DNA of 64,000 nt from the NCBI GenBank assembly GCA_951406725.2, contig OX597816.1, positions 25,668,001-25,732,000 of the forward strand, written 5' to 3'. Shown here piece after piece: positions 240 through 63,124 of the stretch. Both the position numbers and the translations under genes were made by a program. Origin of the DNA: Octopus vulgaris (lineage: Eukaryota). The first letter of the stretch is position 1, and each line of letters opens with the position of its first letter. A model generated the notes under the pieces. That model saw only the letters and a list, made by a program, of their open reading frames with translations, made no database searches and was not told where the DNA came from.

Positions 240-350
240 CTATGGAACAATCTTTTCCCCTAAATCCTGGATTACACTGGCATAGAAAATTTGATCCATT
301 GTTCAAACAAATACCTCCATTTTCACATGGATTGCTACCACACGGATGAA
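240..350 (-). CDS. EGF exon 30
   Basis: 111 nt phase 1-1; [36 protein letters not shown]; donor G|GTAAGT. Confidence 0.93.

Positions 351-63124: not shown

Follow-up and report, generated by a model that had tools for sequence, protein, structure and literature searches.

A 57-EGF gene in a cluster of Octopus vulgaris paralogues encodes a predicted secreted protein with a WSC-VWA head and a VWD-C8-TIL-EGF-PAN-PAN tail

Which protein is encoded by a gene whose exons cross a whole 64,000-nt stretch of Octopus vulgaris DNA, and what could it serve for? This stretch, hereafter named the window (G000:C3:25668001-25732000), had been singled out in a preliminary description, made from the sequence alone, for a hidden giant gene combining one WSC domain, one VWA domain and a series of EGF repeats. 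The gene, hereafter named the 57-EGF gene, lies on the minus strand.

Inside the window, the 57-EGF gene has 34 exons totalling 4,197 nt, i.e. 1,399 codons, which bears out the 34 spliceable exons and ~1400 codons first announced. Upstream, a 39-nt exon (63086..63124, minus strand, AG/GT flanks, phase 1-1) corresponds to the predicted second half of a signal peptide; the signal peptide is split over two short exons in the paralogues too. The WSC domain is carried by two minus-strand exons, of 134 nt (58512..58645; Pfam WSC profile positions 1-45, E 4e-05, 24.2 bits) and 124 nt (53278..53401; profile positions 42-82, E 6e-04, 20.4 bits). Each half scores under the curated Pfam cutoff of 27.8 bits. 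Together, they tile the profile and, once joined, share 51% identity with the WSC domain in the cluster model P0019 (XP_036355134.1), in support of the single WSC domain proposed earlier. The VWA domain is encoded by a 567-nt exon (46637..47203, minus strand; Pfam VWA E 1.4e-46). Its MIDAS is intact, as had been claimed, with D-x-S-x-S and the downstream T and D all present, and its best solved relatives are collagen VI alpha-3, then mussel proximal thread matrix protein 1.

Six-frame translation reveals 30 EGF exons between 44356 and 240, all on the minus strand; the plus strand of the window holds no real one. All 30 are AG/GT-flanked and phase 1-1, with a length of 111 nt except for EGF1 (114 nt, 44243..44356). 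EGF2-EGF30 (29 exons of 111 nt, 240..43032, minus strand) start at 43032, 41296, 39802, 38385, 37437, 35006, 32395, 31327, 30379, 27918, 26506, 25919, 24101, 20884 and 18870 (EGF2-EGF16), then at 18170, 16140, 14590, 14342, 12288, 8592, 7165, 5742, 5393, 4713, 4013, 2828, 1646 and 350 (EGF17-EGF30). A near-identical EGF pattern gives no match in 20 mononucleotide shuffles of the window. The expected minimum of 30 uniform 37-residue repeats is thus reached in the window and exceeded in the whole gene, which has 57. Positions 1..239 hold the start of the intron following EGF30, and the gene continues past the left end of the window.

Several introns contain repeated elements. Between the two WSC exons lies a non-LTR retrotransposon (54184-57650, plus strand) with an 801-residue open frame (54726-57128), a reverse transcriptase (Pfam RVT_1 E 5.3e-28) and a zinc knuckle, flanked by two tracts of ~104 TAA units. 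A restriction-like endonuclease motif near its end and the TAA tracts presumably recall R4/Dong-type microsatellite-targeting elements. Intronic dispersed repeats at 43174-44295, 45044-46539, 51776-52149 and 53272-54000 show a very high contig depth in 4/4 sequencing runs and are probably octopus SINE-like elements present in many transcripts. Intronic tandem repeats are also observed at 18994-19373, 21886-22141 and 31338-32196, with periods of 189, 122 and 38/105/211 bp.

Splicing of the head was followed in contigs of four runs (X1, X3, X7 and X10, coded labels; four studies) aligned to window positions 42800-54000. These runs were chosen from the 24 returned for the VWA exon; none is recorded as RNA, and their RNA nature is presumed. 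In each of the four, one contig carries WSC exon 2, VWA, EGF1 and EGF2 in series, with the introns absent. The EGF2-EGF1 and EGF1-VWA joints are found in 4/4 runs, while the WSC-VWA joint is direct in X7 and X10 and contains 15 extra letters in X1 and X3. Hence, both links of the head on which the preliminary description relied, WSC to VWA and VWA to EGF1, are read in contigs. The extra letters apparently fit an optional, alternatively included micro-exon adding five linker residues. A candidate position (52276..52290, minus strand) was chosen by its pyrimidine tract among three AG/GT-flanked 15-nt candidates, because the number of extra letters, not the letters themselves, is visible. In addition, comparison by eye shows that the loose end of the X7 contig matches the end of WSC exon 1, and contigs are computed to carry 35-69 nt upstream of the 39-nt signal exon. 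On the other side, judged by length only, contigs extend 1,104-5,001 nt past EGF2, i.e. 9.9-45.05 units of 111 nt, near whole multiples; the longest would reach only about EGF47. Within the VWA exon, 9/9 allele differences among contigs are synonymous, which points to purifying selection.

How far does the gene extend? The whole-gene model has 69 coding exons over 123,988 bp, with every intron GT-AG, and reads as one frame of 2,962 residues; its head exons are read in contigs and its tail joints are genomic predictions. The domain order is signal peptide, WSC, VWA, 57 EGF, VWD-C8-TIL, EGF-like module, PAN, PAN and stop. The in-window exons make up approximately the front half of the gene, which starts 746 bp past the right end of the window and runs ~59 kb past its left end. 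The candidate first coding exon (G000:C3:25732746-25732716, minus strand) holds an ATG, 10 codons and a G, followed by a GTGAG donor. Of the 23 ATG-donor candidates listed in 80 kb of upstream sequence, it was preferred for its nearness and for a 10-codon + G layout that two paralogues also have.

Downstream, EGF31-EGF57 are encoded by 27 exons of 111 nt (G000:C3:25666533-25621806, minus strand), and a DNA profile built from the EGF exons finds exactly 57 of them in the gene span. The tail, a genomic prediction (G000:C3:25620977-25608759, minus strand), comprises VWD (two exons), C8, TIL, an EGF-like/TILa-like module, PAN, PAN and a stop. Pfam E-values are 2.9e-15 for VWD, 8.5e-11 for C8, 1.9e-07 for TIL and 1.1e-12 for the first PAN; the second PAN (8.6e-04) and the EGF-like module are weak calls, under Pfam cutoffs. 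The joint between EGF57 and VWD is deduced from the genome: the end of EGF57 and the start of the VWD exon, 828 bases apart, are both in phase 1, and the frame is open throughout. A tblastn search finds no second VWA in the gene span, and the neighbouring gene past the stop has its own signal exon at C3:25595624. In this part of the assembly (G000:C3:25597430-25613042, loci L006-L008), the last three exons occur in two copies that are 98% identical over 7.8 kb and separated by a 100-N gap; this is likely an uncollapsed haplotype or an assembly duplicate. For the first PAN exon, AlphaFold run on the single sequence gives a poor model (pLDDT 47.8).

Without its first exon, the product computes to 317 kDa with a pI of 5.25 and 394 cysteines; the full product would be roughly 320 kDa. 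Ser and Thr account for 15% of the residues, with no PTS stretch. A C-terminal TM, ZP or GPI-type tail, which had been considered for the flank, is absent from the model: the predicted stop follows the second PAN and, outside the signal peptide, hydropathy over 19 residues is at best 1.33, with no window above 1.42. By prediction, the protein is secreted and not membrane-tethered. The binding head and the long EGF stalk first described are therefore both present, but the protein is two-ended, the stalk being followed by the VWD-C8-TIL-EGF-PAN-PAN tail. In this tail, the VWD has GDTH in place of the GDPH self-cleavage motif. There are 48 cysteines in the tail of the 57-EGF gene versus 46 in four aligned paralogue tails. 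The two extra ones, in EGF57 and in C8, may pair with each other or between chains.

The stalk itself is highly regular. The cysteine spacing is 4-5-8-1-8 in 56/57 EGF units, and the last unit has a seventh cysteine. Mean pairwise identity between units is 53% for protein and 60% for DNA, and only units 51, 52, 53 and 55 reach 90-95%. This divergence argues for an old array and makes wholesale false duplication unlikely. The six-cysteine units show many predicted modification sites (motif definitions from general knowledge): O-glucose consensus in 46/56, O-fucose in 23/56, O-GlcNAc in 6/56, N-glycan sequons in 35/56 and the Asn/Asp hydroxylation consensus in 42/56. Fibrillin-type calcium-binding EGFs have D/N-x-D/N-E/Q right before the first cysteine together with the hydroxylation consensus. 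Here, the latter occurs alone and the residue preceding the first cysteine is Pro in 56/57 units, not Glu or Gln, so that these are not canonical calcium-binding EGFs and the fibrillin type was rejected.

The 57-EGF gene is no orphan, since it belongs to a tandem cluster of six paralogues that spans roughly 580 kb (C3:25.155 to 25.733 Mb), at the end of which it lies. Gene A (plus strand) encodes a signal peptide, 2 EGF, VWA, 18 EGF, VWA, 5 EGF and a tail. Gene B (G000:C3:25272005-25422062, loci L033-L048, plus strand) encodes a signal peptide, WSC, 18 EGF, VWA, 11 tandem EGF-VWD-C8-TIL units and a PAN pair. The remaining four lie on the minus strand. Gene 4 has a PAN pair and two VWD units with a VWA; gene 3 (G000:C3:25556970-25499250, loci L012 and L021-L025) encodes a signal peptide, VWA, ~30 near-identical EGF and a tail; gene 2 encodes a signal peptide and three VWA with 8 EGF; the 57-EGF gene is the sixth member. 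The EGF arrays differ in mean core charge, which is +6.0 in gene A (25 units), +9.1 in gene B (18), -0.7 in gene 3 (30), -1.3 in gene 2 (8) and 0.0 in the 57-EGF gene (56), whose stalk has a neutral cysteine core and is acidic overall. The cationic arrays of genes A and B hold fewer glycosylation motifs. The array of the 57-EGF gene is the longest of the cluster and among the most diverged.

Some features of the neighbouring genes deserve mention on their own. Gene B is an FCGBP-like giant with strongly cationic EGF units. Ten of its 11 VWD units are mostly 82-98% identical per exon to one Octopus sinensis model and the last one is divergent; in this assembly, the first seems broken, with a frame break, a partial VWA copy and a stop within a partial copy. 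For gene 3, G000 has ~30 EGF exons (mean identity 83%) and the model P0027 (XP_036356789.1) of O. sinensis, with isoforms of differing length, has 21 EGF matches by Pfam; the difference reflects either recent array expansion, alternative splicing or assembly collapse. In the gene A models P0015 (XP_036356793.1) and P0016, the acidic repeats at the N-terminus seem to come from cationic EGF exons read in the wrong frame, and the genome has a normal signal exon and EGF exons in this region. The O. bimaculoides models P0152/P0157 (XP_014774721) fuse genes 2 and 3. The family may have more members elsewhere in the genome, as VWD and PAN also match at C3:89.6-89.9 Mb and 144.7 Mb, and another tandem PAN-domain array is suggested by a minimum of 13 weak matches to PAN exons in G000:C10:23.65-24.93 Mb (plus strand).

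Relatives in the databases come from O. sinensis, O. bimaculoides, O. vulgaris and Argonauta hians, under the names Notch-like, zonadhesin-like, fibropellin, matrilin and mua-3-like. The O. sinensis models are mostly 85-100% identical per exon to the neighbouring genes of the cluster. Among them, P0027 shows the same plan in one annotated chain (signal-VWA-21 EGF-VWD...PAN), with a tail 45% identical to that of the 57-EGF gene; the plan is also found in P0015, P0016 and the Argonauta model P0026 (GAB1606482.1). Together with P0028 (XP_029633305.1) and P0019, the cluster models have tails 35-45% identical to the 57-EGF tail, and in paralogue models the junction between EGF and VWD falls where it does in the 57-EGF model. 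A WSC domain is common only to P0019/P0024; there, EGF precedes VWA, followed by many tandem VWD units in G000. The 57-EGF gene shows the defining family plan, i.e. signal peptide, VWA, 37-residue EGF exons, VWD-C8-TIL-EGF-PAN-PAN and stop, with tail joints that are predicted. Full-plan matches came from Octopus and Argonauta only, among the 10 proteins returned by a search that needs shared words and a length range.

Phylogeny agrees with this grouping in part. In the VWD-C8-TIL tree, 8/17 rows (cluster, Argonauta and 57-EGF gene) form a clade with 100/100 support, with an outgroup devoid of non-octopod molluscs; this grouping hints at a possible lineage restriction. The VWA tree does not resolve the sister of the 57-EGF gene nor hold the octopod VWAs together. 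The nearest non-octopod matches of the tail include IgGFc-binding-protein-like and mucin-2-like sequences (25-32% identity). With the P0027 tail, the ESM Atlas returned only generic VWD-C8-TIL clusters (scores at most 0.77), which we treat as a lead only. Scanning metagenomes with the first PAN exon produced 118 pattern matches, none of them confirmed as a relative, a result that says nothing about an animal gene.

None of the fetched and mapped models corresponds to the 57-EGF gene itself, the best VWA identity being 49%. Its protein was found neither among the 21 matches of a VWA query (329-2,000 aa) or the 10 of a paralogue-tail query (729-2,323 aa), nor in the best 120 of 579 matches (2,688-5,000 aa), which are crowded by EYS and other EGF giants. 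This absence is weak evidence for an unannotated gene. We found no description of the architecture or of the cluster in open-access PMC and bioRxiv text, in line with the initial remark that this exact domain order was not recognised as a named family; that part stands, but the gene has a cluster of octopod database models around it, one of them with WSC. Overall, all the parts are familiar; the domain combination, the array length and the charge-diversified cluster did not turn up in these texts.

Protein-level evidence exists for one neighbour. In the O. vulgaris skin-mucus PSM table (listed rows of PMC10138644 Table S1), at least three distinct peptides are assigned to gene B models. Two of them were mapped and match only gene B repeats within 664 kb. 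At least three other peptides in these rows are assigned to an uncharacterised zonadhesin/IgGFc-like model, LOC115209496; the two that were mapped are not in the 664 kb around the cluster. None of the mapped peptides matches the 57-EGF gene, and four test motifs of its protein were not found among the rows listed. The same holds for the accessions P0027, P0028 and P0156 (models for genes 2, 3 and 4) and for that of one gene A isoform, so that the mucus evidence covers 1/6 cluster genes. The accessible text of PMC11431876 and PMC8976471 contains nothing specific to the 57-EGF locus; in the text available, a paper on the Octopus maya oviducal gland mentions a ZAN-named gene with no tie to it.

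What could such a protein do? Matrix, mucus or adhesion is the best functional class, which retains most of the range first put forward (matrix, adhesion, mucus or pattern recognition) and leaves pattern recognition as a minor rival. Within this class, we lean towards a secreted two-ended linker, an EGF rod with binding ends that would cross-link mucus or a similar coat, for instance skin or gut mucus. This reading is favoured because the head is spliced, the 69 exons read as one open frame, variation in the VWA exon is synonymous only, the stalk has many glycosylation motifs, no anchor is present in the model, paralogues share the same plan and gene B peptides occur in mucus, and also because the EGF cysteine spacing equals that of octovafibrin, a load-bearing octopus EGF rod. 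The VWD without GDPH self-cleavage motif counts against it, as do the mucus evidence limited to one of the six cluster genes and the four motifs of the 57-EGF protein that were not found among the listed rows.

From these features, we infer the shape, ligands and assembly of the rod as follows. EGF units are 2.5-3 nm long; locked by three disulfides each, they would form an extensible rod with a contour of ~140-170 nm, taking the spacer role held by the Pro/Thr/Ser domain in mucins. At the head, WSC would grip glycans and the VWA MIDAS an acidic side chain of a partner, the roles of WSC and PAN being extrapolated from other proteins. At the other end, the VWD-C8-TIL assembly and the PAN pair would self-associate or bind other matrix glycoproteins, possibly aided by the two cysteines absent from the aligned paralogues. 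End-to-end or end-to-partner binding could then build a network, as proposed for octovafibrin.

A broader and rather doubtful extension of the linker reading concerns the whole cluster. Octopods may have made PTS-free mucin substitutes by exon shuffling, with EGF rods of tunable length and charge and interchangeable ends; electrostatic co-assembly of the polycationic rods (about +6 and +9 per EGF core) and the neutral-to-acidic, heavily glycosylated ones, such as the 57-EGF protein, would then give a two-component mucus or a reversible glue. VWD-C8-TIL recurs in aquatic adhesives, where flatworm ap1 is cationic and ap2 glycosylated (accessible part of PMC8621496). The octopod pairing would parallel that of ap1 and ap2, but all in folded EGF units.

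Other readings of the locus have to be weighed against the two-ended linker. The protein could belong to a specialised glue or coating, such as the cement of egg stalks, the coat of eggs or spermatophores, or the interface of the sucker cuticle, with its EGF array binding chitin or other GlcNAc polymers, which we regard as unlikely. The mussel thread matrix protein, second-best solved relative of the VWA, goes in this direction, as do octovafibrin, which has the same EGF spacing and builds octopus egg threads (accessible part of PMC10336842), tandem EGF proteins that adhere to chitosan in a GlcNAc-dependent manner (accessible part of PMC11697411), and the flatworm adhesive ap1, with its lectin, VWD-C8-TIL and 7-18 EGF domains (PMC8621496, same part). 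However, octovafibrin is reported there as the sole detectable thread protein and its C-type lectin ends are absent from the 57-EGF model, the ZAN-named gene of the O. maya oviducal gland is not tied to the locus in the text available, and the protein-level evidence for the cluster comes only from skin mucus. We hold it for improbable that the product is a soluble pattern-recognition or agglutinating protein, in which WSC and PAN would bind microbial glycans and the rod would multiply avidity, as proposed for FCGBP-like proteins in mucosal defence. WSC and PAN provide two candidate lectin-type ends. The IgGFc-binding-protein-like and mucin-2-like matches of the tail point the same way, and strong positive charge, a trait of antimicrobial proteins, marks the EGF units of two paralogues. 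Yet the stalk of the 57-EGF gene has a neutral core and is acidic overall, its 57 spacers exceed what recognition needs, and the synonymous-only variation of VWA (one domain, 9 sites) is unlike an arms race. Moreover, such a role would be compatible with the secreted linker rather than exclusive of it.

An internal extracellular-matrix protein of connective tissue, cartilage or basement layer, matrilin- or fibropellin-like and with a VWA linking collagen fibres, appears less probable still. It would account for collagen VI alpha-3 as the closest solved structure, for the matrilin-like juxtaposition of VWA and EGF, and for the sea-star model P0044, which has VWA, 46 EGF matches and a C-terminal VWD; against it stand a model without second VWA or evident coiled-coil tail, a VWD-C8-TIL assembly that points to the mucus/adhesive class, and a paralogue, gene B, found in surface mucus in the listed peptide rows. 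Finally, the EGF array and the VWD tail could be two transcription units, or the repeat count and tail could be assembly artefacts. The joint between EGF57 and VWD is genomic, the longest contig would reach only about EGF47, and an assembly gap follows the last exon, with the 98%-identical 7.8-kb stretch recurring beyond it. The matching phases across 828 bases in an open frame, the same EGF-VWD junction in paralogue models and the low mean DNA identity of the EGF units (60%) make this very improbable.

Few structural proteins are defined in cephalopod mucus and glues, and the 57-EGF locus provides a complete candidate. Several entries under the names Notch-like, zonadhesin-like, matrilin or fibropellin turn out to be members of a single family, a point to bear in mind when octopus transcriptomes and proteomes are interpreted. 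The paralogues keep a common fold and differ in rod length, charge and predicted glycosylation, which makes them a natural series.

How does this architecture compare with known systems? Matrilins have a VWA-EGFn-VWA order followed by a coiled coil, and were rejected in view of the single VWA (tblastn) and the VWD...PAN tail. SVEP1/polydom combines VWA, HYR, EGF, pentraxin and many sushi domains; no such Pfam match exists on the exons scanned, and the continuous frame has no room for them. Notch, whose name is carried by paralogue models, and Crumbs have LNR and ankyrin, or laminin-G domains, plus a transmembrane helix, at odds with the lack of a hydrophobic window and the stop after PAN. Gel-forming mucins, made of N-terminal D1-D2-D'D3, a central PTS domain and a C-terminal cystine knot, were also rejected: here, a single VWD-C8-TIL lies near the C-terminus, PTS stretch and cystine knot are absent, and a PAN pair ends the chain. 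FCGBP and zonadhesin have many tandem VWD-C8-TIL units with GDPH cleavage, and zonadhesin adds MAM domains and a membrane anchor. Both were rejected, since the 57-EGF model has one such unit, GDTH instead of GDPH, no MAM and no anchor; the MAM domains of zonadhesin are described together with mucin repeats (accessible part of PMC1325057). What the 57-EGF protein shares with mucins, FCGBP, zonadhesin and von Willebrand factor is a VWD-C8-TIL assembly in a large, secreted, cysteine-rich protein.

Other likenesses are found among rods and adhesives. SVEP1-like proteins and the Patiria miniata model LOC119727201 (P0044) resemble the 57-EGF protein by an N-terminal VWA and dozens of EGF, to which P0044 adds a C-terminal VWD, so the design is not unique; P0044 differs by HYR and pentraxin domains and gives no WSC, C8, TIL or PAN match. 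Because its VWD falls outside the octopod clade, the plan is likely convergent. Macrostomum ap1, considered with sea-star Sfp1 in the accessible part of PMC8621496, is secreted and has a lectin-type domain, VWD-C8-TIL and tandem EGF. In contrast, the end modules of ap1 and Sfp1 and their order are different, ap1 as described there is without VWA or PAN, and the 57-EGF protein is without GRK low-complexity arms. Fibropellin is likewise an EGF rod with assembling ends (accessible part of PMC10336842), but its end modules differ.

The nearest parallel is octovafibrin of O. bimaculoides (XP_014771937.1), a 135-kDa egg-thread protein with 29 EGF and C-type lectin ends; the latter are proposed to drive end-to-end assembly, and the mechanics are disulfide-dependent (accessible part of PMC10336842). 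The two proteins share secretion, predicted for the 57-EGF protein, a long uninterrupted EGF array that is not canonical calcium-binding, and binding domains at both ends. In addition, the octovafibrin EGF cysteines at positions 5, 10, 16, 25, 27 and 36 (same source) give a spacing identical to the 4-5-8-1-8 of the 57-EGF stalk. They are set apart by description: 29 EGF with lectin ends for octovafibrin, versus 57 EGF between a WSC-VWA head and a VWD-C8-TIL-EGF-PAN-PAN tail, the 2,962-residue frame of the 57-EGF model being filled by domains other than C-type lectin ends. Taken with octovafibrin, the locus hints that octopuses repeatedly build secreted materials from long arrays of single-exon EGF units. 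The 57-EGF protein likely works as octovafibrin does, as a disulfide-locked EGF rod with binding ends.
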